Shown: positions 11,491 to 39,884 of the stretch, in pieces
Position numbering within the stretch: position 1 is the stretch's first letter
How the letters are laid out: each line of letters begins with the position of its first letter
NCBI GenBank assembly: GCA_964580765.1
Contig: CAZOKW010000003.1
Location: 1-53,396 of the forward strand
Origin: an uncultured Candidatus Saccharibacteria bacterium
Lineage (GTDB): Bacteria; Patescibacteriota; Minisyncoccia; 2-02-FULL-40-12; IGHO2-12-FULL-4
Length of the DNA stretch: 53,396 nucleotides
Reading direction: 5' to 3'
The notes under the pieces: generated by a model
Told to the model about the DNA's origin: nothing
Databases searched by the model: none
Seen by the model: the letters and a program-made list of their open reading frames with translations, nothing else
Program-made: the position numbers and the translations under genes

Positions 11491-11656
11491 TATAGAGGTC
11501 ATCTCAAACCCTCTTTCATTACGAAATTTTAAAAACTTTAAGCGAAAATAATGAAGATTGAGGAAGGATACTAATAGTATTTTGACGAAATCTGAATTAT
11601 TTGTAGCTAAAGTTTTTAAATTGCAGTAGAATATGGGGTTTGAGATGACCTCTACA
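11491..11656. mobile_element. MITE-like element with 21-bp terminal inverted repeats (20/21 match)
   Basis: Left arm tatagaggtcatctcaaaccc at 11491-11511; right arm gggtttgagatgacctctaca at 11636-11656. The left arm starts 3 nt from the start codon of the minus-strand PEGA gene. The right arm is an inverted copy of that gene's 5' end. Confidence 0.45.
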
Positions 11657-11738
11657 CTATTATGCATAAAGTAGAAGTGATTGTAAATCTTGCTTAAACA
11701 CCTGATGGATTATAAACTAGGGACGATAACATCTTATT

Positions 11739-12746
11739 ATGTTTGTAAAAAAGATTGGAATAGATCTGGGCACTACTAATACTTTGGTGTTTGTGCCGAA
11801 AAAAGGAATCGTTATTAACGAACCGTCGGTGGTTTCGATTTCAATTTTAGACAACAAAATAATCGCCGTAGGGAATGAGGCCAAAGAAATGATCGGCCGG
11901 GCGCCGGATAGCATCATTGTTTCCCGTCCGCTTAAAGACGGAGCGATTGCCGACTATCGCGTAACCGAAGCCATGCTCCGGTATTTTATCAGAAAGGCGG
12001 TCGGCAAAATCGGCCTGGTCAAACCGGAAGTGCTTATCTCTGTACCGGCTGGAATTAACTCCACCGAAAGAAGAGCGGTCATTGAAGCCACCATGAACGC
12101 CGGGGCCAAGGCTGCTTATCTGGTCAAGGAACCTGTTTTGGCGGCCATCGGAGCCAAGATAGCCATCAACAGCGCTTCCGGCAACATGATCTTAAATATC
12201 GGCGGGGGAACCGTGGAAGTGGCCATCATCAGCTTGGGAGGGATAGTCAACGCTTCTTCAGCCCGGGTGGGCGGAAACAAAATAGATGAGGCCATCGTTG
12301 ATTACATTAAAAAAAAACACGGCTTGGCCATCGGGAACCGCACCGCCGAATTGATCAAGATCGCCATTGGCAGCGCTATTAAACAAAGTAATGAAGAAAA
12401 AATTAATGTGCGAGGAAGAGATCTGACTACCGGTTACCCCAAAACAGTGGAGATTGGTTCCAATGAAATCACCGAGGCCATGCAAGACCAACTGCGGGAA
12501 ATTATTCAGACCACCAAAAATGTTTTGCAAGATACGCCGCCGGAACTTTGTTCCGATATCATCGATAAAGGCATCGTCATTTCCGGCGGGGGAGCGCTGC
12601 TAAAAAATATCGACACCCTAGTAACTAAAATCACGGGGGTGCCATGCCGAATCGCCGACGACCCCCTTCTCTGTGTGGCCAAAGGCACCGGCGTAGTTTT
12701 AGAAAACTTGGAAGTCTACAAAAGAAATATAATGACGAAAAGATAG
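11739..12746 (+). CDS. mreB: rod-shape determining actin homologue MreB
   Basis: IGIDLGTTNTLVFV..., actin-fold phosphate motifs, ILNIGGGT. Confidence 0.85.
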   Translation: MFVKKIGIDLGTTNTLVFVPKKGIVINEPSVVSISILDNKIIAVGNEAKEMIGRAPDSIIVSRPLKDGAIADYRVTEAMLRYFIRKAVGKIGLVKPEVLISVPAGINSTERRAVIEATMNAGAKAAYLVKEPVLAAIGAKIAINSASGNMILNIGGGTVEVAIISLGGIVNASSARVGGNKIDEAIVDYIKKKHGLAIGNRTAELIKIAIGSAIKQSNEEKINVRGRDLTTGYPKTVEIGSNEITEAMQDQLREIIQTTKNVLQDTPPELCSDIIDKGIVISGGGALLKNIDTLVTKITGVPCRIADDPLLCVAKGTGVVLENLEVYKRNIMTKR

Positions 12747-12750
12747 AGTG

Positions 12751-12972
12751 GTCATAATGCCAAGTACTGCTTTTTCCGGACGCTCACTTTTTTCCGGCGA
12801 AAAAGCTCGCTCATTGTAAGCAGTGGATTCGGAAAGAATTAAAAGATTAATTATATTCTTTCCGTCCAGCTCGCTACTTTTTCCGCATAATTCTGCTGAA
12901 TAGATTGCAAAAGTAGCTCGCGAGCAATCCACCGCTTACAGAGCCTTCAAAAGCAATACTTGGCATTATGAC
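12751..12972. mobile_element. MITE-like element with 24-bp terminal inverted repeats and nested internal palindromes
   Basis: gtcataatgccaagtactgctttt at 12751 and aaaagcaatacttggcattatgac at 12949 (23/24 match). Internal partner pairs ctcattgtaagcagtggattc / gaatccaccgcttacagag. Confidence 0.5.
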
Positions 12973-12982
12973 TTTGATATTG

Positions 12983-13012
12983 CAAACAAAAAAGCGCGGG
13001 GAATCCCCACGC
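12983..13012 (-). terminator. rho-independent terminator after the small minus-strand ORF
   Basis: Minus strand reads gcgtggggattccccgcgc followed by tttttt. Confidence 0.5.
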
Positions 13013-13019
13013 CGCAGTA

Positions 13020-13139
13020 CTACTCTTCATCATCATTCGCCATTTTTTCGAGACTTTCATGGATCTTGGATAGTTTCCAACTGATCATGACAAGCATGTA
13101 AGCAATAAACACCACCAACCCAAAAAATACTGACTCCAT
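13020..13139 (-). CDS. small hydrophobic protein (39 aa)
   Basis: Hand translation MESVFFGLVVFIAYMLVMISWKLSKIHESLEKMANDDEE. Strong SD GGAGGTG 5 nt before the ATG. Terminator immediately downstream. Confidence 0.35.
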   Translation of the reverse strand: MESVFFGLVVFIAYMLVMISWKLSKIHESLEKMANDDEE

Positions 13140-13191
13140 AGGACACCTCCTTCTTTACTTTTAATCATAAACATACAGTTTAGTACTTAAA

Positions 13192-14445
13192 ATGTCAAGT
13201 AATCCCCTGAAAAAAATCGCCTTAGTTCATGACTGGCTTTTGGGATTGGGGGGGGCGGAGAGGACACTGAAGGTTCTGCATGAGATGTTTCCCCAAGCGC
13301 CAATTTATACTTTTTTTTACAACAAAAAATTTACCGATAAATTTTTACCGAACGCTCAAATTAGACCCTCCTTCATCCAGAAAATTTGTAAACTAAAAAC
13401 TATAAACTATAAACTATTCTTGCCCCTTCTGCCCATTGCCGCCGAGTCATTTGATTTAAGCCATTTTAATCTGGTCATCTCATCTTCCATCGCCTTTTCC
13501 AAGGGACTGATTTTGAAACCGAAAACAAAACATATCTGCTATTGCTACAGTCCCACTCGATTTTTGTGGGATTGGCACCAGGAATATTTACTTGGAAACG
13601 GGGTTTCCAAGTTAAATAAAGGATGGGGAGTTAAAATACTTCAACATTTTTTAAGAATCTGGGACCGGCAGTCCGCCAATCGGGTGGACCAGTTTGTGGC
13701 TATTTCCAAAACTGTTCAGCAACGCATTAAAAAATATTACGGACGAGATTCGATTGTAATTTATCCGCCAGTTACCAGAATTGAAAGCAGTGTACTCCCT
13801 CGGGACATTGATTTTCCCAGCGAGAAAATCAATTCACTGTCGGCTATGGATTTTGTCCGAAGTGAGGAAATTATACTTCGTCCAAACCATGCAATCCACA
13901 GCCGACAGTGCCCTCTGGAGTACACTGCTTCCAAATCTGATCTCATACCAAATTATTACTTAATCGTTTCCCGTTTATTCCCACACAAAAACATTGATAT
14001 CGCTATCAGGGCCTTTAACAAATTGGAACTGCCTCTGATAATTATCGGCGCTGGGCCGGAATATGGAAAATTAAAAAAAATAATTGAGAACAAGAATATG
14101 ATAAAATTACTGGGAGAGGTGCCGGATACAGAATTAGGAAACTATTACGCCGATACTAAGGCCTTTATCATGCCACAGGAAGAGGACTTTGGCATGACTC
14201 CATTGGAAGCCATGGCCTTTGGCAAACCGGTTCTGGCCTTGCGAAAAGGAGGGGCGCTGGAGTATGTTTTAGAAGGAATCAATGGAGAATTTTTTGACGA
14301 CCCTCATCCCGCCATTTTAGCCGACGGGGTCCGCCGTTTAAACGAAAATTATAAAAATTACAGCCCTTTAGTCATAAAAAAAACTGCGGAAAGATTTTCA
14401 CGCAGTCGGTTTGAAGAGGAGATAAAAAACATTATTTCAAAATGA
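13192..14445 (+). CDS. GT4-family glycosyltransferase with an in-frame palindromic-element insertion
   Basis: N-terminal ALVHDWLLGLGGAERT glycosyltransferase motif. The 141-bp family-4 element at 13788-13928 is a multiple of 3 and keeps the frame. Confidence 0.7.
   Translation: MSSNPLKKIALVHDWLLGLGGAERTLKVLHEMFPQAPIYTFFYNKKFTDKFLPNAQIRPSFIQKICKLKTINYKLFLPLLPIAAESFDLSHFNLVISSSIAFSKGLILKPKTKHICYCYSPTRFLWDWHQEYLLGNGVSKLNKGWGVKILQHFLRIWDRQSANRVDQFVAISKTVQQRIKKYYGRDSIVIYPPVTRIESSVLPRDIDFPSEKINSLSAMDFVRSEEIILRPNHAIHSRQCPLEYTASKSDLIPNYYLIVSRLFPHKNIDIAIRAFNKLELPLIIIGAGPEYGKLKKIIENKNMIKLLGEVPDTELGNYYADTKAFIMPQEEDFGMTPLEAMAFGKPVLALRKGGALEYVLEGINGEFFDDPHPAILADGVRRLNENYKNYSPLVIKKTAERFSRSRFEEEIKNIISK
13788..13928. 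mobile_element. family-4 palindromic element (TIR gcagNNtact...ccctc) inside the GT4 gene
   Basis: Outer inverted repeat gcagtgtactcc / ggagtacactgc. Inner pair cactgtcggctatggat / atccacagccgacagtg. Core ggattttgtccgaagtga...ttcgtccaaaccatgcaatcc is shared with the copy at 50689-50839. Confidence 0.6.
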
Positions 14446-14537
14446 CATCATTACTTTATTCTGAAACCTCTTTCCAGTACCACCTCAATACCAGTCACGC
14501 AAACAACAATCAAACAAAACCATAAAAAAGTTTCCAT

Positions 14538-15512
14538 ATGTCACCTCGTGTTTTTATAATCATTCTCCAGTACAACCATTCCCAAGACACTATTAAGTGC
14601 CTTGATTCGGTTGGGAAATTGACCTACCCCAACTTTCAAACAGTTGTCGTGGACAATGCTTCTCAAAGTTCTGAAAAAGATAATATCAAGAACTACATAA
14701 AAAGTCAAGGCAACATTGTTTTGCTCGAAAATGAAAAAAATTTGGGATACGCCGGAGGAAATAATACCGGAATAAAATACGCTTTAGCCCATGGCGCGGA
14801 TTATGTTTTCATTTTAAATAACGACACGACTGTTCCGCCGGACTTACTTGAGAAATTGGTAAACGAAGGGGAAAGTGACTCTAAAATTGGAATAGTGGGA
14901 CCGGCCATCAAAGAAGGGGATGGGCGAATCGCTTACTACGGAAAAATCTCCTGGCTCAAAGCAGAACTGAAACATGTCTATGGAAAATCAGCCATACACC
15001 TACTCGAAAATTCCCGAGCGACAAGTCGAGGGTCGAGAGTGGGTGGTATGGCTGATTTTCCCGATCGAGTACGAGTATTAGGGCCGAAAGAATATGTCAT
15101 CGGGGCGGGAATGCTTATCAAAAAAGAGGTACTGGAAAAGATAGATGGTTTTGATGAGGTTTACTTTCTATATTTTGAAGATGCCGACCTCTGTCTGCGC
15201 GCCCAATTAGCCGGTTATAAGCTCAAAATTGCCCCAGAAACAATGATTTATCACCAAGGAGCCGCCAGCACCTCTACTCTTGGCAAACCGCTACTTTTAC
15301 GGTACCATATGAGGAACGCTCTGATTTTTAACTCGCTCAACGCGCCTTGGCCAGTTAAGTTTAGTTTAATCTTCTGGTCCAGCTACATTTTACTGAAAAA
15401 CTTTTTGAAAGTTTTTCTTTTGCCATCCAAAGTAACGGCCGGAGAAGCCATCATTGACGGCGTGCTGGATTTTTATAAAAACAACTACGGAAAAATAAAT
15501 ACTCCCAATTAA
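14538..15512 (+). CDS. GT2-family glycosyltransferase with an in-frame family-2 element insertion
   Basis: VVDNASQ, GYAGGNNTG and EDADLCLRAQLAGYKL motifs. The frame is maintained across the 14985-15058 insert, which encodes KSAIHLLENSRATSRGSRVGGMADF. Confidence 0.75.
   Translation: MSPRVFIIILQYNHSQDTIKCLDSVGKLTYPNFQTVVVDNASQSSEKDNIKNYIKSQGNIVLLENEKNLGYAGGNNTGIKYALAHGADYVFILNNDTTVPPDLLEKLVNEGESDSKIGIVGPAIKEGDGRIAYYGKISWLKAELKHVYGKSAIHLLENSRATSRGSRVGGMADFPDRVRVLGPKEYVIGAGMLIKKEVLEKIDGFDEVYFLYFEDADLCLRAQLAGYKLKIAPETMIYHQGAASTSTLGKPLLLRYHMRNALIFNSLNAPWPVKFSLIFWSSYILLKNFLKVFLLPSKVTAGEAIIDGVLDFYKNNYGKINTPN
14985..15058. mobile_element. family-2 RPE-like palindromic element, copy 1, in-frame in the GT2 gene
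   Basis: aaatcagccatacacc...ctcgaaaattcccgagcgacaagtcgagggtcgagagtgggtgg...tatggctgattt with a terminal 16-bp imperfect inverted repeat. Confidence 0.7.
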
Positions 15513-15520
15513 TTAAATTG

Positions 15521-15691
15521 CTAGCTTTCGTTCAAATATGACCGATTGGCTGCAAATTACCGAAGCGGAGTGAAAATTTGGCCGGTAGATTAAAATTCGG
15601 TCCGACTCTTGGAGGGGTACTGAATTTTAGTCGGCAAATTGAGCAAAGCGAGGATAATTTGTCCAAGAGGACATCTTGAAAAGAGAGCTGG
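15521..15691 (+). ncRNA. candidate structured element SE, copy 1, upstream of the GT4 gene
   Basis: Near-identical to 34399-34589 over about 160 nt (ttcaaatatgNNcgattgg...ggaggggtactgaattttagtcggcaaattga...gcgaggataatttgtccaagagg.catcttgaaaagaga). It ends 17 nt before the ATG at 15709. Confidence 0.4.
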
Positions 15692-15708
15692 CAATTTAAT
15701 TAAAAAAT

Positions 15709-16875
15709 ATGTTAAGAATTGGTATAGAGTGCCATGCTCTAGAGGCAAATCGTTGGGGAGTGGGGCACCACTTAGCAAAACTGCTTGAAGAAATTTCTAT
15801 AAAATCTGAACTCGCCAACGAGTTCAGATTTTATCTTTACTTTAAAGGTCGTATTCCTGACGATTCTTACCTTAATAACCCCATCTTTGTAAAAAGAATT
15901 TTAAAACTACCCCTCATTAGTCCATCTTTTAACATTTTTTTTCATTTTCTTTTGCCCCTGGTCTACTTCAGAGACCATCTGCAAGCGGTCTTTTTTGCCG
16001 GTTTTATGTTGCCGGCATTTTTTCTGGGAAAATCATTGGTTCTTCTGACTAGCGACGTCTACTACGAATACACTCAAGGCCAATTGCCATTTCGCTACAA
16101 ATTGAGCTACGCCCTTTTCGCTAATTGGGCCGCTTGGCGCGCCACCAAAATTACCTCTCTATCAAACACGGACAAAGAGGAAATAGTAAAGATGTTTAAA
16201 ATTGCTCCTGAAAAAATCTCAGTCAATTATTTAGGGGTTGACCAAAAGCAGGTGGTTACCTCCCTTTTGCAGTTCGTCGGCGACGAGTCCGACGCAAAAA
16301 AGGGAGGTAACCACCTGCCTTTAAATTATCTTTTGTATGTTGGTCAAGCTTTTCCCCGAAGGAGAGCCAAGGAAACTATTCAATCCTTTGCTATTTTAGC
16401 TCCTAAGTATCCTGATTTAAAATTAATTCTGGTCGGCCAAGATAAATACAATCCGCCCGTTCTGCAAAATTTAGTTAAAGAAACAAACCAAAAACTCGGC
16501 GGGGAAAGAATAATTTATCATGGTTACATAGAAAACGACGATGAACTGCAAAAACTGATGGCCGGAGCAAAATTATTTATTTATCTATCGTCTTCCGAGG
16601 CCTTTGGTATTCCACCCCTGGAAGCACTAGCCGCCGGCGTTCCTCCGATAGTTAAAGACAACGACCTGAATCATGAACTTTATGAAGGCCATGCTTTTTA
16701 TGTGAAAGATGAAAAAGACCCGGTACAAATTGCCCTTGCTCTGGAAAAAGCTCTGACCGATATCGTCCGCCGTCAAGAAATTATTCAAAATTCAGAAAAA
16801 GTAATTTCAAAGTTCAACTGGAAAAATCACGCCGAAAAATTCCTTGAGACCATGAGAGAAATAGTAAAAAATTAA
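15709..16875 (+). CDS. GT4/GT1-family glycosyltransferase
   Basis: C-terminal EAFGIPPLEALAAGVPPIV retaining-GT motif. Confidence 0.7.
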   Translation: MLRIGIECHALEANRWGVGHHLAKLLEEISIKSELANEFRFYLYFKGRIPDDSYLNNPIFVKRILKLPLISPSFNIFFHFLLPLVYFRDHLQAVFFAGFMLPAFFLGKSLVLLTSDVYYEYTQGQLPFRYKLSYALFANWAAWRATKITSLSNTDKEEIVKMFKIAPEKISVNYLGVDQKQVVTSLLQFVGDESDAKKGGNHLPLNYLLYVGQAFPRRRAKETIQSFAILAPKYPDLKLILVGQDKYNPPVLQNLVKETNQKLGGERIIYHGYIENDDELQKLMAGAKLFIYLSSSEAFGIPPLEALAAGVPPIVKDNDLNHELYEGHAFYVKDEKDPVQIALALEKALTDIVRRQEIIQNSEKVISKFNWKNHAEKFLETMREIVKN

Positions 16876-18749
16876 TGCGAGAGGCTCCGGTGGACATACT
16901 TTTGTTCGACGGCGCTACAGGGATTCCGCAACGGGCCACTGCAGACATTGTGGCTACCGTTGCGGAACCTTCCATGCGACACAAAAGTGTCCCCACTCCG
17001 CCTCTGGTAAATATGTTTAAACACTTTGATACTCTTAAAAAACCAGTTAATGTCATCTTCCTAGTCCAAATTGTGGTCGTCTTTTTGGTGGCCTTCGGTG
17101 TCTGGCCAAGAACACTGATAATTCCTTTGACGGCCTTAATCGCCATTTTTATTTTACGAGCCGATTTGGAAACATCCGCTTCTTTTTTTATCCGCTCCAT
17201 ACCACTTTTCGTGGCCATTCCTTTTACCTCTTATTTTGATTCTTTCAATATCTGGCGAATCGCCGGGGGATTGATTTTTTTGAAATGGTTTTATCAATCG
17301 TACAAAGAAAGGATAAGAATAGCGGGCAAATCAGCCATACACCTACTCGAAAATTCCCGAGGAGATTCTATGGGCGGGCTAAAGCACCGCCCACCAGAAA
17401 CTTCTCCTGACAGCGACAGTCGAGGGTCGAGAGTGGGTGGTATGGCTGATTTGCTAGTCATAAAAATTAAAAAATATCCTTTAGCGTCTTTGTTAACGAC
17501 TTTTCTTTTACTTTCCACCCTATCCCTTCTAGCCGCCGAAGATATTTTTACTGGAATCAAAAGAATAATTTATTTAATCAATTTGAGTTTAGTTCCTCTA
17601 GTCGTTTACGACTTGATTAAAAAAAAACCCGCCCTCATCAAAAAGTTCTTAGATAGCATTTTGATTTCTGGAGTAATCGTGGCCGGAGTCGGCATCACCC
17701 AGTTAGTCAGCGCTTACTTAATGCCTTTGGGCGCTTTTCTGGATTTTTGGGGAGGTACGGTTCAGCTTGGCTTTTATGGCTCACAGTGGTCCAGTATCGC
17801 TTTAGAAGGGAACACTTGGTTTGCCTACTTCGGCGACCAACTATCTTTGCGAATTTTTTCAACTTTTACGGACTCTCACTCTTTTCCGGTTTACCTTTTA
17901 ATGACAATTCCAGCTCTCTTGGCTTTAGCTAAACTCACTTGGAAACGGGGTTTCCAAGTGAGTGGAATCGTTCTCCTTGTCTTGTATCTTCTGATTATCC
18001 TAAGCGGCACCCGAGGAATATGGTTAGCCGTTTTAGGACCTTTACTGGCTTGGCCGGTTTTAGTTAATTTTCTAAAAAGGGATGGGGGGAGTTTAGAAAA
18101 AAGTTTGTTAAAAAAACTCGGATTGCTCCTTTTGCCATTTTTTCTTCTTTTCGCCGCCGCTTTTCCTATTATGGGCTCGGACCAATTCTGGGTTGAAAAA
18201 GAAAATAATCAAATTCTGGCCAAACGGATTCGTTCCGTTCTCGATTTGAACGAGACATCAAATAGTGGACGGGTAGAAATCTGGAAAAAAACGGTCAAAT
18301 CAATTATTCACCGTCCGCTCCTGGGGGTGGGGATTGGTAACTTTCCAACTGTTCTTTCTCAGCATACTGACTTGGCCAAAGCCGGCTCTTCTGCGCATAA
18401 TCTCTATCTCCATATTGCCGCCGAAATCGGCCTAGTCGGGCTTTTAGCCGCTTTAGGTATTTTGTTCATAATTTTAAAAAGAAGTTGGGATGTTTTCCGA
18501 AGAGCCAATCAGCCACACCCCCACTCGAAAATTCCCGAGCGAGGAGTCGGGGGTCGAGAGTGGGTCGGTGTGGCTGATTGGCTCACTATTAAAACCTACG
18601 CTGCCGCTTTTGTCCTTTACAGTTTGTGGGTTTTGTTTTACTCTTTAACGGATGCGATAATGTTTGACGAGCGCGTTTTTCTCGTTTTTGCCATTAATTC
18701 AGCCGTTATTTTAGGTCTATATAAAACAAAATCCGCCTTAGCGGATTAA
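16875..18749 (+). CDS. O-antigen ligase (Wzy_C)-like polytopic membrane protein, with two in-frame family-2 element insertions
   Basis: Many TM helices. HNLYLHIAAEIGLVGLL Wzy_C-like motif. The start is uncertain because the first 40 codons overlap a family-1 remnant. Confidence 0.6.
   Translation: MREAPVDILLFDGATGIPQRATADIVATVAEPSMRHKSVPTPPLVNMFKHFDTLKKPVNVIFLVQIVVVFLVAFGVWPRTLIIPLTALIAIFILRADLETSASFFIRSIPLFVAIPFTSYFDSFNIWRIAGGLIFLKWFYQSYKERIRIAGKSAIHLLENSRGDSMGGLKHRPPETSPDSDSRGSRVGGMADLLVIKIKKYPLASLLTTFLLLSTLSLLAAEDIFTGIKRIIYLINLSLVPLVVYDLIKKKPALIKKFLDSILISGVIVAGVGITQLVSAYLMPLGAFLDFWGGTVQLGFYGSQWSSIALEGNTWFAYFGDQLSLRIFSTFTDSHSFPVYLLMTIPALLALAKLTWKRGFQVSGIVLLVLYLLIILSGTRGIWLAVLGPLLAWPVLVNFLKRDGGSLEKSLLKKLGLLLLPFFLLFAAAFPIMGSDQFWVEKENNQILAKRIRSVLDLNETSNSGRVEIWKKTVKSIIHRPLLGVGIGNFPTVLSQHTDLAKAGSSAHNLYLHIAAEIGLVGLLAALGILFIILKRSWDVFRRANQPHPHSKIPERGVGGREWVGVADWLTIKTYAAAFVLYSLWVLFYSLTDAIMFDERVFLVFAINSAVILGLYKTKSALAD
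16878..16918. repeat. truncated family-1 hairpin element (half copy, minus orientation)
   Basis: gaggctccggtggacatacttttgttcgacggcgct matches the left half of the reverse-oriented copy at 36301-36380. Confidence 0.4.
17328..17452. mobile_element. family-2 RPE-like element, copy 2, with a 50-nt internal insertion
   Basis: Same termini aaatcagccatacacc / ggtatggctgattt. The extra internal hairpin is gggcgggctaaagcaccgccc. It is in-frame in the ligase gene. Confidence 0.65.
18505..18581. mobile_element. family-2 RPE-like element, copy 3
   Basis: ccaatcagccacacc / ggtgtggctgattgg is a perfect 15-bp terminal stem with paired compensatory changes (atac to acac, gtat to gtgt). It is read in a different frame from copy 2 within the same ligase gene. 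Confidence 0.65.
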
Positions 18750-25546: not shown

Positions 25547-26344
25547 TTATCTTATCCGGCTCAACCAGAATTGGTTTTCCCACTCCCAAAGAGTTTTGCA
25601 AGCCAAAAAAGCGGAAAAATCATGATTCTGACCGGGCAATTCTTTCAGCTCCGCTTCTCCGACCATTTCACTCCATTGGTGTTGGCAATTTTTTCCTTTG
25701 CCCTCCGAAGCTTTACTGTGTCCGTCCGAAGCGCTTCGCGAAGGAGGAGCGTAGGAGGGGACTCTTATCTTAGGTGTACCGCCCTTCAAACGCAAAGTAG
25801 CCGGACAATTTAAGCATTTATGGTGCTGGTCCAAACGCAATATCCAGCGGGTCATAGAAGAGGGAAGGCCATTTTCTATCAAGGCCTCCACATAAGCAGC
25901 GGTCTGGATGCCATAATCCCTATAAATGGAATAGGAAGTTTTAATATCTAAAACTCCAAGTTGGCCGTTCACTTCCGCCAAGACATCCAAAGTGCCGGAG
26001 TAGCGGTGCTTTTTACTGACTAATCTTTCCTCGATCTGTTTGGCCGAGACCTGGTTGTGATTTAGAAAATTCATAAAAGCGTCAATAACCGGGCGGATGT
26101 TTTCCGGAATGACCGGCTGCCGGCCGCTTAAAATCGCCTCAACCGTTTCGTGAATTAAAGTTCCTTCTTCCGCCGATTTAGCCTTCATCGCTTCCCCGGC
26201 TTCAAAACTTTCCTGCTCCGCATAAAATTTATAAAGCCCCGGCTTAGCTTTCATGGAAACAATTTGAGTAACCCGCGGATACCAAAAACCATCAATGGTA
26301 TAACCGGAAGCCATCTTAAAATCTTCTAGAGTCCGATAAAACAT
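25547..26344 (-). CDS. PD-(D/E)XK nuclease, Cas4/RecB-exonuclease-like, with an embedded family-3 element
   Basis: GTLDVL...LGVLDIKTS...YGIQTAAY (D, EXK and QxxxY motifs). C-terminal Cys cluster HHKCLNCP...C, interrupted by the element at 25700-25760 that encodes APPSRSASDGHSKASEG. Confidence 0.55.
   Translation of the reverse strand: MFYRTLEDFKMASGYTIDGFWYPRVTQIVSMKAKPGLYKFYAEQESFEAGEAMKAKSAEEGTLIHETVEAILSGRQPVIPENIRPVIDAFMNFLNHNQVSAKQIEERLVSKKHRYSGTLDVLAEVNGQLGVLDIKTSYSIYRDYGIQTAAYVEALIENGLPSSMTRWILRLDQHHKCLNCPATLRLKGGTPKIRVPSYAPPSRSASDGHSKASEGKGKNCQHQWSEMVGEAELKELPGQNHDFSAFLACKTLWEWENQFWLSRIR
25700..25760. mobile_element. family-3 (CCGAAGC) palindromic element inside the Cas4-like gene
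   Basis: gccctccgaagctttactgtgtccgtccgaagcgcttcgcgaaggaggagcgtaggagggg. The central cgaagcgcttcg is a perfect palindrome. It matches 32380-32439. Confidence 0.65.
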
Positions 26345-30065: not shown

Positions 30066-31397
30066 TTATAGGTAATCTAATGGATTTATTGAACCTTCAA
30101 AATAGTTAAAATATAACTGGCCGTTTTTTTCGTTGATATAAGTAAAGAAATCTTTATAAACACTTAGATGTAAATGGGAGCCGGTGGAATTTCCGGTAGA
30201 CCCCTCATAACCGATAACATCACTGGCCGTAACCGCCAAACCATTAACCAAACCGGAAGGAGCGCGCAGATGAGCGTAAACACTGACCAATCCGCCATTG
30301 TGCCGCACAGCCACCCAATGGCCGAAACCATCGTTAAACCCGCTGGCCAAAATATTTCCGGCGGCCATCGGATGAATGGCCGTACCATAACCGCCCGCCA
30401 AATCAATCCCGTTATGAGGAGCGCCACCATAAGGTTTTCGTCTGGAACGGGCATAAGCGGTATATCCGTAACCTTGGGTAATGTGATATTCATCTTCCGG
30501 CCATTGAAAAATTTTAGTTCCCCGCGGAGGAACCGCATCAGCCGTCACATGTACGATAAAAGCCCCAGACTGCAAGGCCTGATCTTCCAAATTCTTTAAT
30601 TCCGCGAAAAACTCCGCTTCTTTCTTCTCCGTTTCCGCCAGTAATTTTTGATACTCCGCCTCCTGCCCCTTGGTCCTGACCAAAAGATTGTTCTTGTTCG
30701 ATTTGGTGCCGCTTAAAGCCACCTGCTGATTCTTCTGTGAATTATTCAACTTTTCCAAATCCTGTTTTTTTATTTCCAGTTCGGTCTTATTTTCTTCCAG
30801 TTCTTGGCGTTCGTTTTTTAAAACAGTAATGGCGGCCAACAAACTCTTGTTTAAATTATCGGCCTGCTTGGCTTGATCCAAAAAATCGGAAAGGTGGTTA
30901 TTTTTCAACAAAATAGCCAGCCAGTTTTCCCGGTCGTTTTGATACATCATTTTCAGTAAACTGCCCACCGTATCTTGACGATTTTTGATCTTTTCGTGCC
31001 GGTCAAAAATTTTATCGCGCAAATCCCCGATTACCAACTGTGTAGAGGAAATCTTATTTCCGGTTATTCTGACTTCCGTTTCCAACCGGCTGATCTGATT
31101 GGTCAAAACGCTTATTTCTTTTTGTAAACTAGTCGCCTCCTTTTGCTTGCCGGAAACAACTTTTTTATATTCATCTGATTTCTTTTGCAGTTCTTCCAAC
31201 TGTTTTCTCAAGTCCAATATTTTCTGATTGACATCTTCCGCCGCCAATCCAGATCCGGAATAAAAAAAGAAAGAGAAGAAAACGACCAGGCAAATCAGCC
31301 ATACACCTACCTGAAAACTCCCGAGCGACAAGTCGAGGGTCGAAGGTAGGTTGTATTGCTGATTTGCTAAAAATTTACTTTTGAATTGCTTTTTCAA
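30066..31397 (-). CDS. M23 family metallopeptidase with coiled-coil region (EnvC-like)
   Basis: Long coiled-coil. C-terminal HNGIDLA...GSTGNSTGSHLHLSV M23 motifs. The N-terminal 35 codons are encoded by the family-2 element copy at 31292-31365. Confidence 0.7.
   Translation of the reverse strand: MKKQFKSKFLANQQYNLPSTLDLSLGSFQVGVWLICLVVFFSFFFYSGSGLAAEDVNQKILDLRKQLEELQKKSDEYKKVVSGKQKEATSLQKEISVLTNQISRLETEVRITGNKISSTQLVIGDLRDKIFDRHEKIKNRQDTVGSLLKMMYQNDRENWLAILLKNNHLSDFLDQAKQADNLNKSLLAAITVLKNERQELEENKTELEIKKQDLEKLNNSQKNQQVALSGTKSNKNNLLVRTKGQEAEYQKLLAETEKKEAEFFAELKNLEDQALQSGAFIVHVTADAVPPRGTKIFQWPEDEYHITQGYGYTAYARSRRKPYGGAPHNGIDLAGGYGTAIHPMAAGNILASGFNDGFGHWVAVRHNGGLVSVYAHLRAPSGLVNGLAVTASDVIGYEGSTGNSTGSHLHLSVYKDFFTYINEKNGQLYFNYFEGSINPLDYL
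31292..31365. mobile_element. family-2 RPE-like element, copy 4, antisense within the 5' end of the M23 peptidase gene
   Basis: aaatcagccatacacctacc...cccgagcgacaagtcgagggtcgaaggtaggttgtattgctgattt. Confidence 0.6.
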
Positions 31398-32835
31398 TTC
31401 TAGTAAGTGTTTTATCTCGTCCTAATATACCCATAATCTGCACCGGATCGGGAGAAAACTTCTCTCCGCTTAAAGCCACCCGCAAAGGCCAATAAACCGC
31501 CCCTCTGTCTCCGCCGAATTCTTTTTCGGCCAATTGATCCAACTCGGAACGAATATATTTCTCATCAAAAATCTCCCACTCAGTTTTGCTTTCCAAAATT
31601 TCTTTAGCTAATTCTAGGGCCTTTTTTGCCCCCTCCTTATCCGATTTTTTCCAGACCAGTAAATCAGATTCGTACTCCGGCTCGACAAAGAAAAACTTAA
31701 ATTCTTTAACCTGCTCAAAATGTTCTAATCGCTCCCGCAACATCGGCGCTATTTTGATAATTTTTTCATTGGCCTGCTCTCCAAAATATTTTTCCACAAA
31801 GTGTTTGGCTGCTTCGGCCAGTCCCTCGTCGTTGAACATTTTAATATACTGCGAGTTAACCCAGTTTAATTTTTTGATATCAAAAATCGCTCCGCTTTGA
31901 TGAACTTTTTCTAAACTAAACTGCTCAATAATTTCATTCTTGGTTAGTATCTCTCTGTCTCCCTCCGAACTCCACCCCAACGCCGCCAAAAAATTCACCA
32001 TGGCCTCCGGCAGATAACCAGACTCTTTGTAAAAAGAAAAATCAGTTGATCCGTGTCGTTTGGAAAGCTTGGAACGGTCCGCCCCCAAAAGCAAAGGCAA
32101 ATGGGCAAATTGTGGGACCGGCGCTCCCAACGCTTCGAAAATTAGAATTTGTTTGGGAGTGTTGGAAATGTGGTCTTCGCCACGAATGACATGACTTATT
32201 TGCATTTCATAGTCGTCCACCGCCACGGCAAAATTGTAGAGCGGAGTTTGCAGGTTTTTCGCCAAACTCAAATCCCCCACCACTTTCTGCTCAAACTCAA
32301 TATGACCCCGAACCGCGTCTTCAAAATGAATAATTCTGGTCGAATTTTCATCTACCGCCAATCTAATGATCCCTGGCTTGCCCTCCGAAGCTTTACTGTG
32401 TCCGTCCGAAGCGCTTCGCGAAGGAGGAGCGAAGGAGGGATATTTATGTTCGCAAATATGGCGTGGCGCTTCTTTTTTGGTCATCTGCTCCTCTTTTTCT
32501 TTATTTAGTTCCTCAATGGAGTGATAGCACCAAAAGGCCTTTTTCTCTTCCAAAAGTTTTTGTAAATATTTTTCATAGAGGGCCGACCGTTCACTGGAAC
32601 GATAAAACTCATCCCATTTTAAACCCAGCCACTCCAAACCGGACATGATGCTTTTCTCAAATTCGGATCTTGATCTTTCCTTGTCGGTATCCTCAATTCG
32701 TAAAATAAATTCACCGCCATGGTGGCGGGCAAAAAGCCAATTATACAAAGCCGATTGAGCTGTGCCCACATGTAAATTCCCCGTCGGCGAAGGCGCCACC
32801 CTAGTCCGAATTTTTAGCTTTTGAACTTTAGTCAT
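31375..32835 (-). CDS. gltX: glutamyl-tRNA synthetase with an in-frame family-3 element insertion
   Basis: RVAPSPTGNLHVGTAQSALYNWLFARHHGG and KLSKRHG class-I motifs. The insert EHKYPSFAPPSRSASDGHSKASEGK precedes the conserved PGIIRLAV. Confidence 0.85.
   Translation of the reverse strand: MTKVQKLKIRTRVAPSPTGNLHVGTAQSALYNWLFARHHGGEFILRIEDTDKERSRSEFEKSIMSGLEWLGLKWDEFYRSSERSALYEKYLQKLLEEKKAFWCYHSIEELNKEKEEQMTKKEAPRHICEHKYPSFAPPSRSASDGHSKASEGKPGIIRLAVDENSTRIIHFEDAVRGHIEFEQKVVGDLSLAKNLQTPLYNFAVAVDDYEMQISHVIRGEDHISNTPKQILIFEALGAPVPQFAHLPLLLGADRSKLSKRHGSTDFSFYKESGYLPEAMVNFLAALGWSSEGDREILTKNEIIEQFSLEKVHQSGAIFDIKKLNWVNSQYIKMFNDEGLAEAAKHFVEKYFGEQANEKIIKIAPMLRERLEHFEQVKEFKFFFVEPEYESDLLVWKKSDKEGAKKALELAKEILESKTEWEIFDEKYIRSELDQLAEKEFGGDRGAVYWPLRVALSGEKFSPDPVQIMGILGRDKTLTRIEKAIQK
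32380..32439. mobile_element. family-3 (CCGAAGC) element inside gltX
   Basis: gccctccgaagctttactgtgtccgtccgaagcgcttcgcgaaggaggagcgaaggaggg, differing at 1 of 60 positions from 25700-25759. Confidence 0.7.
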
Positions 32836-33536: not shown

Positions 33537-33555
33537 AAAAGGTATATTAAGCGCG

Positions 33556-34002: not shown

Positions 34003-34014
34003 TGCCAACAAAAT

Positions 34015-34338: not shown

Positions 34339-34398
34339 AGGGGAAGAAATTGGCTGGCATTGCTTTTGAAAGTGCTGCGCTTTAATTATTTTAAGCAA

Positions 34399-34589
34399 AG
34401 TACCCACCCATCTTTTTTCAAATATGGTCGATTGGTTGCAAATTACCGAAGCGGAGTGAAAATTTGGCCGGTAGATTAAAATTCGGTCCGACTCTTGGAG
34501 GGGTACTGAATTTTAGTCGGCAAATTGAACGGAGCGAGGATAATTTGTCCAAGAGGGCATCTTGAAAAGAGAGGGGTGGGGACGGAGCT
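34399..34589 (+). ncRNA. candidate structured element SE, copy 2, upstream of fmt
   Basis: About 95% identical to copy 1. The 5' end gtacccacccatcttttttcaa is complementary to the 3' end cttgaaaagagaggggtggggac. It ends 9 nt before the fmt ATG. Confidence 0.4.
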
Positions 34590-34597
34590 GAAAACAA

Positions 34598-35488
34598 ATG
34601 AAAATTATTTTCTTTGGAACTTTTCAGTACGCCGTTCCGGCTTTGGAACGGTTAATTAAGGCCGGCTATGAGATTGTGGCCGTTGTCACTAACCCCGATT
34701 CTTTTCAGGGAAGAAAGAAAGAATTGGTGGCCAGTCCCGTCAAACTCGCCGCCCAGCAATACGGCTTAACTGTTTTTCAGCCTCCCAGTTTGAAAATTGG
34801 AAAATTAGAAAATTATTTGGAAATTGAAAATTTTAAATTGAAAATTAAATCCGCCGATCTGGGCATCGTCGTAGCCTACAGCAAAATAATCCCAAAAGAA
34901 ATTTTGGGATTATTTCCTAAAGGTGTTTTGAACATTCACCCCTCTCTCCTGCCCCTTTACCGGGGTCCCTCCCCTATTCAGTCGGCTATTTTAAACGGAG
35001 AAAAAGAAACGGGAGTAACCATTATGCAAATTGACGAAGAAGTGGATCACGGGGCCATTTTATCTCAAGCCAAATATGTAATTCCTCCCGAAGCGCTCCA
35101 CCCCCAAATTGCCATGGAAATTTTCCAGTTAGGAGCAGAACTTTTAATTAAAACTATCCCCGATTGGCTGGCTGGAAAAATCATCCCCCAGCCCCAAGAA
35201 CACACTTGTGCCACTTTTACTAAAAAATTCTCCTGGGAAAACGGGCGAATTGATTGGAATCAGCCGGCGGAAAAAATATATAACCAAATCCGCGCCCTCA
35301 ATCCTGAACCCGGCACCTGGACCACTTGGAAACGGGGTTTCCAAGTGAAAATCTTGAAAATATTAAAAGCCGAAATCGGAGAGGATGGAAAAGTACTTCC
35401 TCAAGAAGTCCAACCGGAAGGCAAAAAAGCCATGCCTTTCCAAGATTTCCTCCGTGGAGTTGGCCAAAAAGAACTGGATTTTAAATAG
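34598..35488 (+). CDS. fmt: methionyl-tRNA formyltransferase
   Basis: IIFFGT and HPSLLPLYRGPSPIQ SLLP-type motifs. There is a low-complexity AT-rich insertion LKIGKLENYLEIENFKLKIKS at 34795-34860. Confidence 0.85.
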   Translation: MKIIFFGTFQYAVPALERLIKAGYEIVAVVTNPDSFQGRKKELVASPVKLAAQQYGLTVFQPPSLKIGKLENYLEIENFKLKIKSADLGIVVAYSKIIPKEILGLFPKGVLNIHPSLLPLYRGPSPIQSAILNGEKETGVTIMQIDEEVDHGAILSQAKYVIPPEALHPQIAMEIFQLGAELLIKTIPDWLAGKIIPQPQEHTCATFTKKFSWENGRIDWNQPAEKIYNQIRALNPEPGTWTTWKRGFQVKILKILKAEIGEDGKVLPQEVQPEGKKAMPFQDFLRGVGQKELDFK

Positions 35489-35512
35489 AAAACTTGCTAT
35501 TGTAAAAATCTA

Positions 35513-36301: not shown

Positions 36302-36380
36302 ATTGGATTGTAGGCTCCGGTGAACATACTTTTTTATTCGACGGTGCTCAAAAAAAAGTGTTCCCCTCCGCCTCCAATCC
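36301..36380. repeat. family-1 hairpin element (reverse orientation) between the ABC ATPase and permease genes
   Basis: gattggattgtaggctccggtgaacatacttttttattcgacggtgctcaaaaaaaagtgttcccctccgcctccaatcc. It is the reverse complement of 21144-21213, with a copy-specific outer stem. Confidence 0.65.
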
Positions 36381-36394
36381 ATCTTTAAATTTTT

Positions 36395-37159
36395 ATGCCC
36401 CCCTTAATTTTATCTTTAATCGTCGGTGGATTTGTCGGATTGGCCTCCGGCTATTTGGGTTCTCTGATGGTCCTAAGAAGAATGTCGCTGGTGGGCGATG
36501 CTCTCTCTCATGTCGCTCTGCCGGGTTTGGCTCTCGGCCTTTTGTGGAATTTTAATCCTTTTTTTGGGGCCTTCGGCGCCTTGGTTTTGGCCATAACTTT
36601 GATTTGGCTGATAGAAAACCGTACTAAACTTTCCACTGAAACACTGGTCGGTATCTTTTTTACCCTAAGCTTGGCCATCGGTTTAATTATCACTCCCGAA
36701 CCAGAATTGCTGGAGGCCCTTTTTGGAAATATTTCCCAAACCGCTTTACGGGAAACCATTTTAGCTGTTATTTTTTCACTAATCGCCATTGTGGCCGTCC
36801 ACAAAATTTACCATCGCCTGGTTCTGGGAACTATTTCTAACGATTTGGCCAGTTCAGTCGGCATCCGTACTAAAAAAATTGATTTTATTTTCCTCTTGAT
36901 TGTCGCTTTGATCGTCGCTCTGGGAATTAAAATAGTCGGCACCCTTTTAATGGGCGCCCTGGTGATTATCCCCGCCGCTTCTGCCAAAAACCTAGCCCAT
37001 AATCTTTCCGCTTATGGCGGACTAAGCGCCTTATTCGGCCTCATTAGCGCCGCTGGAGGGGTTTATCTTGCCTCTCTCCTTCACTTCTCCCCCGGCCCCA
37101 TCGTCGTCCTCGCCAGCGCCGCTATCTTTTTCGTTTCATTGATTTTTAGAAAGAGTTAG
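36395..37159 (+). CDS. ABC-3 family metal transporter permease (ZnuB-like)
   Basis: Eight or so TM helices. MSLVGDALSHVALPGLALG is the typical ZnuB/MntC motif. Confidence 0.75.
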   Translation: MPPLILSLIVGGFVGLASGYLGSLMVLRRMSLVGDALSHVALPGLALGLLWNFNPFFGAFGALVLAITLIWLIENRTKLSTETLVGIFFTLSLAIGLIITPEPELLEALFGNISQTALRETILAVIFSLIAIVAVHKIYHRLVLGTISNDLASSVGIRTKKIDFIFLLIVALIVALGIKIVGTLLMGALVIIPAASAKNLAHNLSAYGGLSALFGLISAAGGVYLASLLHFSPGPIVVLASAAIFFVSLIFRKS

Positions 37160-37177
37160 ATATAATAGTTCTTGCTT

Positions 37178-37750
37178 ATGGCCTTAGGAATGAATGACTT
37201 AAAAGCGGGGGTTTTTTTTATTTACGAGGGACAGCCCTATGTGGTTTTGGAAACCCATCATTTAAAAATGCAACAGCGCCGGCCGACTTTGCAGACCAAG
37301 TTTAAAAACATGCTCAATGGAAAAACATATGAACGGAACTTTCAGCAGTCCGATGTTTTTGAAGAAGCTGATATTGTCCGCCAAAATGTAAAGTTTTTGT
37401 ACAGCCACCGGGAAGAATACTGGTTCTCTTACGAAAAAGATCCCGGCCAGCGGTTTAAACTAGATCGAGGAATGATCGGCGAAGTGGTTAAGTATTTAAA
37501 AGCCAACACCATCTTAAGCGCTGTTTTGTTTAATCAAAAAATTATCAATGTGGAACTGCCGGTTAAAATGGATTTTAAAGTAATCGAGGCCCCTCCGGCC
37601 ATCCGCGGAGACACCGCCCAAGGCGGAGTAAAACAGGTCAAAATAGAGACCGGCACCCTCGTCAATGTCCCCCTCTTTATCAACGAAGGCGATGTGATTC
37701 GCTTAAACACCCAAAGCGGGGATTATGTCGAAAGAGTAGATAAGAAGTGA
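37178..37750 (+). CDS. efp: elongation factor P
   Basis: Start taken at the ATG of MALGMNDLKAGVFF. KOW-like N-terminus, then OB domains. Confidence 0.85.
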   Translation: MALGMNDLKAGVFFIYEGQPYVVLETHHLKMQQRRPTLQTKFKNMLNGKTYERNFQQSDVFEEADIVRQNVKFLYSHREEYWFSYEKDPGQRFKLDRGMIGEVVKYLKANTILSAVLFNQKIINVELPVKMDFKVIEAPPAIRGDTAQGGVKQVKIETGTLVNVPLFINEGDVIRLNTQSGDYVERVDKK

Positions 37751-37824
37751 TACCCTCTCGAGAGCTTGTCTGCTGGGAGCAGACAAGCGGTGAACATCCC
37801 CGCTCGGCCTCTGGCCAATTATTG

Positions 37825-38409
37825 TTAGATTACTTTTTTGCGTCTAAGAAATAACAAAGACAAAAGCGGGACAAAAGACCAGATAAAAGAGGCCGGCGGC
37901 CAAGCTAAATATTTCCTTATTACGGGATAGGAATTAAAAATAGAGTTATCAAAAGGAGGCGCATAAGAAATAATAATTGACAGCCAAAAGATTCCTTGCA
38001 GAATACTTAAGAAGAGAATAGTCATCGGCGGGGATTCTTGTAAAGACATCTTCGGTCTTAAAATCGAGCGGTTCAAGATCAAAACGGAAATGATGAAGAA
38101 AATTACAAAAATCAGGAGACGGGCCCAAAATATGGCCGGCAGGTTTAGAAAATCGCCAAAAAATTTAGCCAGTTCCAGCCGATAAATAAAGGTTGATTCC
38201 AGAAAAGCGGAAATATAAGTGGCCAATAGAGCCAGAACGATCTTGGTTTTACCAAAACTCAAAGCAATCAAAAAGATCACCAAAAGAAAAAACAAGAAAA
38301 ACAAACTGCCGCCACTGGTGACAGTTGAACTCATCAGGCCGTCCAGCCCGCTGAAATTTTTAGAAAAACTTCCGACAGAAGATAGGATTTTGATTAAAAA
38401 TTCCTGCAT
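37825..38409 (-). CDS. hypothetical polytopic membrane protein (CvpA-like topology)
   Basis: Four or more hydrophobic helices. Last gene of the minus-strand heat-shock operon. Confidence 0.45.
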   Translation of the reverse strand: MQEFLIKILSSVGSFSKNFSGLDGLMSSTVTSGGSLFFLFFLLVIFLIALSFGKTKIVLALLATYISAFLESTFIYRLELAKFFGDFLNLPAIFWARLLIFVIFFIISVLILNRSILRPKMSLQESPPMTILFLSILQGIFWLSIIISYAPPFDNSIFNSYPVIRKYLAWPPASFIWSFVPLLSLLFLRRKKVI

Positions 38410-38411
38410 TT

Positions 38412-38945
38412 TTAAACTTCGTCGTGAAAAACAACTTTAACAAATAAATCTCCGCCGGGAGCATGACCCTCGTTGTTTATCTGCAAAACAGCGCCGGCGA
38501 CAGTATCTTTGGGAATTTTTATTTCCACTCGCCGAGAAGCCGGTACCCTCCCCGCCCCGTTACATTTTAAACAATTAGGCGTCCGGAGAGTATTTTTATC
38601 CCGGCATTGCGAGCAAAAAATATACCGCTGATACTCCAAATAAACATACCCGCCTTGCCGGGCCTTTTGAGTACTGACCGGTAAATCCAAAAAAATGTCC
38701 CTCCCCTCTTTAAGGTCCTCTGGATTTTGGGATAGTTTTATCTGGCCGGTCGCACTGATAATATTTTTAAGGGCCGTTTGAAAAATTTCCGTGAAATTTT
38801 CCGGCAGCAGGCCTTCGGAATCATCAAAATCCAAATCTAAACCTTCAAGATTTTTTTCCGGAGTGACCGCCGTGCCAATCAAACTTCCCTGCCCTATTTT
38901 AGAAATGTCCAGTCCGTCAAAACTTTTGTCGTCTTTATTTGTCAT
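38412..38945 (-). CDS. DnaJ C-terminal-like protein (Cys-rich zinc-finger plus CTD, no J domain)
   Basis: CSQC...CLKCNGAG CxxCxG repeats and VEIKIPKDTVAGAVLQINNEGHAPGGDLFVKV match the DnaJ zinc-finger and CTD. No HPD-bearing J domain was seen. Confidence 0.55.
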   Translation of the reverse strand: MTNKDDKSFDGLDISKIGQGSLIGTAVTPEKNLEGLDLDFDDSEGLLPENFTEIFQTALKNIISATGQIKLSQNPEDLKEGRDIFLDLPVSTQKARQGGYVYLEYQRYIFCSQCRDKNTLRTPNCLKCNGAGRVPASRRVEIKIPKDTVAGAVLQINNEGHAPGGDLFVKVVFHDEV

Positions 38946-38956
38946 CTTGCTGTTGG

Positions 38957-39790
38957 TTAAAAATTAATTACATCCGCCTCTTTAGAGGCCTTTTCTATTT
39001 TTATGACTTTCAAGACCTTTAAGAACCAGAATAGGAACAAAGTCATCGCTACGGCCAGCCAGATAAATATCGTGCTTAATCCTTGCAGGATCAAAAACAA
39101 GCTAAAAGCGAAAATGGGGGGTAAGAAAACAAAATAAGGATTCAGAAAATTGGTAATCTGGCTAAGCACTGTTTCGGTGGCTTGGGCTCTTAAACTCGGA
39201 TTGGCTATCTCCAGATTTTCACTGACATAACTGCCCACCACCACTTGCACCGTTTTACGGACCGCGCCAGGCAATTCTTTTTTTTGGGCCGCCGCCTGCA
39301 CACCGCTGCTCAAAAAATATCCAAAGGAAATCAAAATTAAAACAGAGGTAATCAACCGCCGCAATCCCGGATCAACGGTTAATTTCAGATTGATTCGCAA
39401 ATGATTATTTTTTTCTCCCTGAATAATCTTGCGGGCGTAGAGTTGAAAGAAAAGAGCAATGGCCACTCCTCCCCAAGTAATAATATTGGTCGGATTAAAC
39501 AAAAGGGCAAAGATAATCAAATTCAAACCCATCACCAACCAAGTCGCCCATTGATCCAGCAATAGAAAAGAAAGCGCCAACAGGCCAGCCAACAGACAAA
39601 GCAACACCAACGGCCACAGCCATGTCTCCACGGCTTGAATCCGCCAGCCGGCGGACATCGGCCCTTCAATTAATGGCTTGGTCACCAACCAAAAAACCAG
39701 AGCCGCCACCGTCGTCACCGCCAAGAGAATTATTTGTTTGAGCATGCTAGATTTTCTTACTGAACAAAGTGAAGTTAGAAACATCTGCAC
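38957..39790 (-). CDS. hypothetical polytopic membrane protein
   Basis: Six or more TM helices. Located between the DnaJ-CTD-like gene and clpB. Confidence 0.45.
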   Translation of the reverse strand: MQMFLTSLCSVRKSSMLKQIILLAVTTVAALVFWLVTKPLIEGPMSAGWRIQAVETWLWPLVLLCLLAGLLALSFLLLDQWATWLVMGLNLIIFALLFNPTNIITWGGVAIALFFQLYARKIIQGEKNNHLRINLKLTVDPGLRRLITSVLILISFGYFLSSGVQAAAQKKELPGAVRKTVQVVVGSYVSENLEIANPSLRAQATETVLSQITNFLNPYFVFLPPIFAFSLFLILQGLSTIFIWLAVAMTLFLFWFLKVLKVIKIEKASKEADVINF

Positions 39791-39884
39791 CCAGCTCTTT
39801 CTAAGCTACCCACGACTAATAACTTGGACAGATTAATTCTGTTACATATTCTTCTTTTTGTGGATACTTTAGAAAGAGCTGGGT
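39789..39884. mobile_element. MITE-like element with 17-bp inverted repeats
   Basis: acccagctctttctaag at 39789 and ttagaaagagctgggt at 39869 (16/17 match), about 60 bp apart. Confidence 0.4.

Follow-up and report, generated by a model that had tools for sequence, protein, structure and literature searches.

Palindromic insertion elements at high density in a Yanofskybacteria-like genome include copies of a family with a conserved core and variable outer stems

The locus and its three hairpin elements

The DNA analyzed here (the window: 53,396 nt of contig CAZOKW010000003.1) carries housekeeping genes, including those for ribosomal proteins and glycosyltransferases, rpoA, mreB, clpC, hrcA, dnaB, recR and genes for tRNA synthetases, and among them lie three palindromic elements, E1, E2 and E3, that are the subject of this report (Table 1). 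The host belongs to the Parcubacteria, within the Candidate Phyla Radiation (CPR), is Candidatus Yanofskybacteria-like and has a tiny genome packed with hairpin elements; the nearest genomes to the window in the species collection are Yanofskybacteria metagenome-assembled genomes. MreB and ClpC of the window occur identically in GCA_007376105.1 (NCBI, Parcubacteria group bacterium), ERZ27284378 (ENA) and SRR8863434 (Logan), and because the sequences of E1, E2 and E3 are the same in these three assemblies, an assembly artefact is unlikely. Our analysis covered about 63 kb of host sequence (the window and 10 kb beyond it) and 750 kb of related loci, which are referred to by L-numbers (L004, L016 and so on).

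CPR (Patescibacteria) genomes are regarded as streamlined, yet hairpin and repeat elements make up about 2.0 of the 5.2 kb of intergenic DNA in the window, or some 40% of its intergenic bases, and another 0.9 kb of them falls within open reading frames (ORFs), as judged from an approximate gene map. Inverted repeats that are perfect over 14 nt or more and fall within 300 nt were found at 14 loci in the window, against 0.14 expected from first-order Markov simulations. The very high density of palindromic elements asserted in the preliminary description of this DNA is thus borne out. Among all phyla surveyed, inverted-repeat density has been found to be highest in the parcubacterial phyla (PMC13155455).

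The three inverted repeats reported in that description are also real, with perfect arms of 19 nt at E1, 23 of 24 positions matching at E2 and 88% matching over 25 nt at E3, all far beyond chance, and each element folds as one long hairpin (z-scores of -7.5 to -11.4). Nor do the elements encode a transposase, as it had likewise stated: their ORFs are spurious, at most 77 aa long and without homologues, and in a protein-database search the 60-aa ORF of E1 had no match and the 77-aa ORF of E2 matched only itself. Among the genes with Pfam annotation, whether of the window, of the adjoining 10 kb or of the related loci that have annotated genes, there is no transposase. Rfam gave no match at the gathering threshold, and a relaxed search returned chance-level matches to unrelated families (E 0.6 to 9.1). 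Integron attC core sites (RYYYAAC ... GTTRRRY) are absent from the ends of E1, E2 and E3, whose neighbors are housekeeping genes and not cassette arrays. Each of the terminal inverted repeat (TIR) sequences is present once in the window. The viral contigs searched with them yielded nothing for E1 or E2 and four single-arm chance matches for E3, and a scan of the JGI metagenomes, made for E1 only, returned a single one-arm chance match, the organism apparently lying outside that collection.

No target-site duplication is present at E2 (flanks GTG and TTT) or at E3 (TGC and AAC). E1 has a possible TA/TA only, which is uninformative because TA is self-complementary and so indistinguishable from the repeat itself. 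Short microhomologies at the junctions (AGATGACC at E1, AT[A/T]ATGAC at E2 and GCAG at E3) hint, if weakly, at replication-based insertion. We conclude that E1, E2 and E3 are real non-coding insertions that were recently acquired.

Table 1. Elements and associated features (positions refer to the window unless another locus is named)
Feature	Position	Strand	Remarks
E1	11493..11654	.	162-nt near-complete palindrome; separates the start codon of the 419-aa gene 10229-11488(-) from its promoter
Predicted sigma-70-like promoter of the 419-aa gene	11659..11687	-	TTTACA-17-CATAAT; from consensus match and conservation only
E2	12751..12972	+	Family G element with extra P4 hairpin; starts 4 nt after mreB stop codon
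Family G covariance-model match in E2	12769..12954	+	J1 TCCGGAC, P1 CCGGCGA...CTCGCT, P2 GTGGATT/AATCCAC, P3 with ATTATA loop, P4
I11, family G sibling	13776..13939	+	In frame within glycosyltransferase ORF 13192-14445, in a linker
I13, family G sibling	50689..50839	+	5 nt after dnaB stop codon; same outer-stem subtype as the L007 copy
I4, family G sibling	51565..51727	-	18 nt after rplU stop codon
Fifth family G copy, same genome	L097:9591-9810		Shares the extra P4 of E2; 87% identity to E2 over 53 nt
E3	39789..39884	-	Nested hairpin; outer stem and flanks homologous to a short L028 hairpin; ~60-nt interior private
H39885	39885..39945	-	Small hairpin abutting E3; includes clpC stop codon

E2 belongs to a multi-copy family

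The arms of E2 (12751-12774 and 12949-12972) form its outer stem, which is specific to this copy, and enclose a branched interior; the whole is predicted to fold with a free energy of -92 kcal/mol (z -9.0). In L016, where MreB is 98% identical, the site is empty: the mreB stop codon runs directly into the terminator of a conserved 39-aa ORF, relative to which the window has about 245 extra bp.

All three elements had been called single-copy in the preliminary description. For E2 this is not the case, since nhmmer and a covariance model identify three other copies of it in the window. An nhmmer profile built without E2 finds it with E=7e-5, a covariance model made from four other copies with E2 excluded scores it at 37.4 bits (E=5e-8), and a broader model of what we term family G scores it at 58.4 bits; E1 and E3 are unmatched by the family G model. 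Together with E2 the family has four copies in the window, a fifth about 200 nt past its right end and others in eight CPR loci. Those elsewhere lie in L004 (two), L007, L012 and L090, with a remnant in L016, and more distant ones in L080 and L074, with a weaker match in L059 (E about 0.1); Moranbacteria-like genomes are included among these.

Members of the family are found just past stop codons or in frame inside genes. The same glycosyltransferase linker holds a copy in the window, L004 and L007, and the ORF stays open with the element read in two frames; the in-frame peptide contributed by I11 had one weak match among 1.84 billion protein representatives. The element has the orientation of the upstream gene in 10 of 12 independent copies. 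Of 11 copies, 10 fold more stably as the complementary strand, by 5-18 kcal/mol and with more G-U pairs, a preference that could mean that the active folded strand is the other one, or could reflect a G-to-A bias on coding strands.

Several other accounts were considered and set aside. A conserved noncoding RNA in synteny downstream of mreB is contradicted by the lack of an element there in L016, L004, L009 and L013; L010-L012 have different hairpins at this position, yet family G copies occupy it in L012 and L080. CTCGCT is not a stand-alone motif, as it is not enriched across the window and is the 3' strand of P1. Stop-free reading frames showed no pattern that would point to adaptation. A link between orientation and replication was likewise rejected, for the skew does not change over the 1 kb between I13 (+) and I4 (-).

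The linker between the glycosyltransferase domains is a recurrent insertion site (L004:5575-5736, L016:1655-1693, and also L006, L008 and L017). At L016:1655-1693 the left arm and P1 alone of a family G element are retained, and the remnants elsewhere are CCAGCGA in L006 and L017 and CTTCGGAC in L008. Either an ancient insertion here subsequently decayed or the linker is the birthplace of family G. The conserved 39-aa ORF already mentioned is hydrophobic and lies on the minus strand at 13020-13139, with mreB on one side and the glycosyltransferase gene on the other; the strong terminator that it has (13013-12993, minus strand) is the sole terminator-like site near E2. The counterpart in L016 occupies the same position and has about 48 aa of poorly conserved sequence.

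A conserved core within copy-specific outer stems

Family G elements consist of a variable outer stem, J1 (YCGGRAC), P1 (CCAGCGA with TCGCT), P2 (GTGGATT/AATCCAC and variants), the P3 hairpin, an unpaired AACC(A/G)(T/A)GC and the return strands, and the same architecture appears in the minimum free energy folds of the nine full-length copies compared. The core of about 110 nt is conserved and covarying: 93% of cells in the alignment pair and 19 of 28 pairs have changed on both sides, against 29-44% pairing when the partners are slid, counts that are supportive rather than proof because the alignment was fitted to the model.

The outer stem behaves differently. In most copies 15-20 perfect pairs run inward from the termini, and these stems, 15-25 bp long, differ from copy to copy, with the exception of one shared by I13 and the L007 copy. 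Across the nine copies the outer 15 nt have a median identity of 47%, close to random, compared with 75% for the core. The termini are therefore the least conserved part of the element, which is the opposite of what is found for TIRs bound by a transposase. A further consequence of a conserved core inside a copy-specific stem is that a genome-wide search with the TIR would wrongly report E2 as unique.

At the orthologous glycosyltransferase site the cores of the window and L004 copies are about 95% identical, and their outer stems are unrelated. The stem of the L004 copy holds conserved P-P-V codons of the host gene (CCGCCAGT), which are also present in the element-free L009, and an inverted copy of these codons (ACTGGCGG) lies on the far side of the element. 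Since the codons in the stem are ancestral and their inverted copy is on the other side, the palindrome has extended into host coding sequence. Template switching is known to homogenize and expand the arms of inverted repeats (PMC13100816, PMC8794818, PMC7202029). That outer arms are always inverted copies of the local flank was rejected as a general rule by two cases, H39885 with its L091 and L005 counterparts, described below, and the I13/L007 pair.

These properties bear on the proposal that the elements are MITE-like (MITEs being miniature inverted-repeat transposable elements). Classical MITEs are defined by TIRs of at least 10-15 bp together with target-site duplications of 2-10 bp (PMC11602168), and E1, E2 and E3 resemble them as small, non-coding hairpin insertions with TIRs of that length; in size, terminal inverted repeats, lack of coding capacity and insertion near genes they are similar to the Correia/NEMIS, RUP and ERIC elements. 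According to this explanation they would derive by deletion from a DDE insertion sequence (IS630/Tc1, IS5 or similar) and be mobilized in trans by a transposase that binds the TIRs. The E1 repeat can be read as flanked by TA/TA, as in IS630/Tc1-type elements, and other hairpin families of the window, such as family B described below, are multi-copy with conserved ends. However, target-site duplications are lacking at E2 and E3 and the TA of E1 says nothing either way, the termini of the E2 family vary while its interior is conserved, neither a transposase nor a parent insertion sequence was found in the sequence examined, and no TIR has a second copy in the window or the viral contigs or, for E1, in the JGI metagenomes. 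We therefore consider a MITE mechanism quite unlikely.

Alternatively, the family G core may be a functional structured RNA or a protein-binding motif under selection, for example an antisense small RNA, or an element for processing or stability at 3' ends or between cistrons. Compensatory variation in P2 and P3 is extensive across genomes that reach the Moranbacteria-like lineages, the short unpaired motifs CCAGCGA and AACC(A/G)(T/A)GC are conserved, the co-orientation with the upstream gene noted above fits such a role, and conservation of the core exceeds that of the host gene at the orthologous glycosyltransferase site. Yet the distribution is patchy, with E2 cleanly absent from the closest relatives (L016, L004-L009), and copies sit within coding sequence in two different frames. 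The better folding of the complementary strand also speaks against selection on the mRNA of the upstream gene, unless mutation bias is its cause. Moreover, there is no Rfam match, and this explanation has nothing to say of E1 or E3. On balance we regard it as unlikely.

E1 separates a predicted promoter from its gene

With its arms at 11493-11511 and 11636-11654, E1 folds over its whole 166 nt as one hairpin (-69.8 kcal/mol, z -11.4). The site is empty in six relatives with MreB 90-94% identical, in which about 100 bp separates the 419-aa gene from mreB, and, aligned with them, the window has E1 as a discrete block of about 165 bp that separates a conserved promoter-like block from the ATG of the 419-aa gene. 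No relative of E1 was found in the 750 kb of related loci, the viral contigs, the JGI metagenomes or the protein databases. The earlier statement that it duplicates the first 20 nt of the adjacent gene was too strong, as only 8 nt are held in common (AGATGACC and GGTCATCT).

About 7 nt separate the -10 box from the ATG of the 419-aa gene in the relatives, a spacing that suggests a leaderless mRNA. E1 starts 5 nt downstream of the -10 box in the window, so that, going by promoter consensus and conservation, the transcript of this gene would begin with the E1 hairpin. The gene-proximal arm (11484-11520, minus strand) supplies a GAGG and a five-codon upstream ORF (ATGACCTCTATAAGATGA), the TGA of which overlaps the true ATG of the 419-aa gene. 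This arrangement may restore translation after the insertion broke a leaderless start.

E3 is a nested composite

The arms of E3 (39789-39813 and 39860-39884) are perfect over their outer 16 nt plus one G-T pair. The spacer between clpC and the next gene is 194 nt in the window, against 0-25 nt or an overlap in four relatives with ClpC 86-89% identical. As to copy number, the E3 stem recurs once: the outer stem and both flanks (CGRTAACAAA-AGTTACCCNGCTCTTTCT ... AGAAAGAGCNGGGTGCWGAT) are found again between rpoA and rplQ in L028, where the stem encloses a 10-nt loop and differs from that of E3 by one compensatory A-T to C-G change. As this stem and these flanks also belong to a small hairpin elsewhere, in a different genome, E3 is a nested composite, in which a hairpin of roughly 60 nt sits within a smaller one. 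The hairpin that abuts it, H39885, has a core in common with an element in L005, where the stem is different, and L091 holds the truncated left half. We had entertained the idea that the left arm of H39885 is ancestral flank kept in L091, and dropped it once the same core was found at the other locus; given the L005 copy, what L091 holds is a truncated element.

The position of E2 and E3 directly downstream of stop codons, together with TIR sequences that are unique in the window, might suggest that the three repeats arose in place as local hairpin terminators or attenuators. None of E1, E2 and E3 is followed by a U-tract or includes a terminator-like site, however, and their stems of 160-220 nt far exceed the size of a terminator. 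E1 lies between divergent promoters and a start codon, upstream of both its neighbors; the E2 interior and the E3 stem recur at unrelated loci; and the relatives function with spacers of 0-25 nt. This explanation is most improbable. The rule offered in the preliminary description, by which a unique TIR would mark a terminator, would misclassify E2, the TIR of which is unique in the window while its core is multi-copy and no U-tract follows.

Discussion

Overall, the window holds selfish palindromic insertions at high density. The explanation that we favor for E1, E2 and E3, and that we think probable though far from assured, is that they are non-autonomous, hairpin-forming selfish insertion elements of the Rickettsia-palindromic-element kind, the arms of which are perfected and extended by template switching. 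The cores would be spread by a trans-acting mechanism that recognizes folded single-stranded nucleic acid and not terminal sequence, and such recognition would explain why there are no clear target-site duplications, why the ends are not conserved and why elements nest in hairpins. After insertion, intrastrand template switching (quasipalindrome correction) would homogenize the arms and extend them into flanking DNA, yielding long, nearly perfect and copy-specific "TIRs". As a side effect the hairpins would reach transcripts, with E1 becoming the 5' end of a formerly leaderless mRNA and E2 and E3 becoming 3' tails or intercistronic hairpins.

Several points weigh against selfish insertion followed by template switching. 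No direct sign of movement was seen: E1, E2 and E3 show no presence/absence polymorphism within a population, and no candidate enzyme emerged. E1 and E3 have one copy each within the roughly 63 kb of genome examined, a span in which family G has five. The conserved, covarying core and the 10:2 orientation bias could instead reflect a selected RNA function, and the reservation attached above to the covariation counts applies here as well. The growth of a stem into host sequence rests on one clear case, the L004 glycosyltransferase copy (L004a). Finally, one outer stem is common to I13 and the L007 copy, which sit at different loci of different genomes, an indication that a stem can move together with its element instead of arising locally in every case.

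The closest parallel is with the Rickettsia palindromic elements (RPEs), which Ogata and colleagues reportedly described in 2000 as non-coding palindromic repeats of 100-230 bp that form several families in a reduced genome. Like the elements of the window, RPEs are palindromic, occur both between genes and in frame within protein-coding genes, and have no linked transposase; the likeness is one of traits, since sequence homology would not be expected across phyla. In-frame insertion is seen here for family G (window, L004 and L007) and for family B (in the GT2 ORF), alongside intergenic copies. The differences are that the present host is a CPR bacterium and that here the interior is conserved and the outer stem copy-specific. 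In-frame insertions have also been described for the QMITEs of Coxiella (PMC5896051), which are accompanied by direct repeats of 2-11 nt, whereas none were seen at the elements described here.

Other known systems share some of these features. Repetitive extragenic palindromic (REP) sequences and REPINs are said, after Bertels and Rainey in 2011, to be mobilized by REP-associated tyrosine transposases (RAYTs; HUH, Y1). They too are hairpin-forming intergenic repeats, often just after stop codons, that lack target-site duplications and are probably recognized as folded single strands. Their arms of 20-40 nt are conserved between copies and have a GTAG or CGTC head, whereas in the present elements it is a branched core that is conserved, the arms being copy-specific; neither a RAYT nor an HUH gene was found in the roughly 63 kb of host sequence. 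Quasipalindrome template switching (PMC7202029, PMC8794818, PMC13100816) explains the perfect copy-specific arms, the concerted double changes and the extension of a stem into host codons, but it is a mutational process and not an element, and gives no account of how conserved cores reach new loci. In sponge mitochondria (PMC2800124), compact genomes have likewise been invaded multiple times by unrelated hairpin-forming repeats, with the difference that these are organellar.

One tentative possibility is that family G is a structured element, distributed across several Parcubacteria lineages, that has a dedicated protein partner, spreads as a folded single strand, nests in hairpins, inserts in frame in housekeeping genes and grows by inverted copying of host sequence. 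If so, it would have a mobile-element lifestyle distinct both from that of TIR/transposase MITEs and from the REP/RAYT system. A high density of inverted repeats in Parcubacteria has already been published at census level (PMC13155455), and families of structured insertion elements account for at least part of that signal; the nature of the repeats, and family G and its behavior, appear to be undescribed in the literature that we searched. The copy-specific "TIRs" were probably generated secondarily, with the consequence that MITE finders based on TIRs, and copy counts made from termini, will miss or misclassify such elements. The elements also reshape expression signals, as where the start codon of an apparently leaderless gene is separated from the promoter by E1, and add peptides to proteins.

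Other hairpin families of the window and its relatives

Family A has three intergenic copies (15505-15707, 34390-34600 and 48985-49185), the first of them overlapping the GT2 stop codon. Over 157 bp, the first two have cores with 95% identity, and their outer stems differ (AATTAATTAAATTGC... and CCCACCCATC...), repeating the pattern of a conserved core and a copy-specific stem seen in the E2 family. Family B elements, of about 80 nt (14978-15065, 17325-17452, 18498-18588 and 31280-31375), lie inside ORFs without breaking the frame. Their hosts are the GT2 gene, a Wzy_C-like gene (twice) and the N-terminus of a gene called as an M23 peptidase, and the copy in GT2 is common to the window and L004.

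The AT-rich palindromes of family D (AAGTTATAAAGTTCATAAAGT...) are at 7819-7897 and 42630-42750. One of them fills the spacer between hrcA and clpC, genes that overlap in L090 and L092, and a further copy follows just after the mreB stop codon in L006. Just downstream of mreB in L010 and L011 there are branched hairpins of 200-260 nt with unrelated sequence, and the stem of the one in L010 includes the mreB stop codon; as the family G model does not detect them, further element families exist.

NCBI contig VMFO01000002.1 lacks 156 bp of the window (16754-16909) where one glycosyltransferase gene ends and the next begins, and is otherwise identical to it, the difference being due either to strain variation or to assembly. 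Lastly, a 62-bp repeat that is 98% identical between its two copies (32378-32439 and 25698-25759) lies inside two unrelated ORFs, that of glutamyl-tRNA synthetase (GluRS) and a 265-aa ORF with weak likeness to PD-(D/E)XK proteins, and, to judge from these positions, may be another element that inserts within genes.

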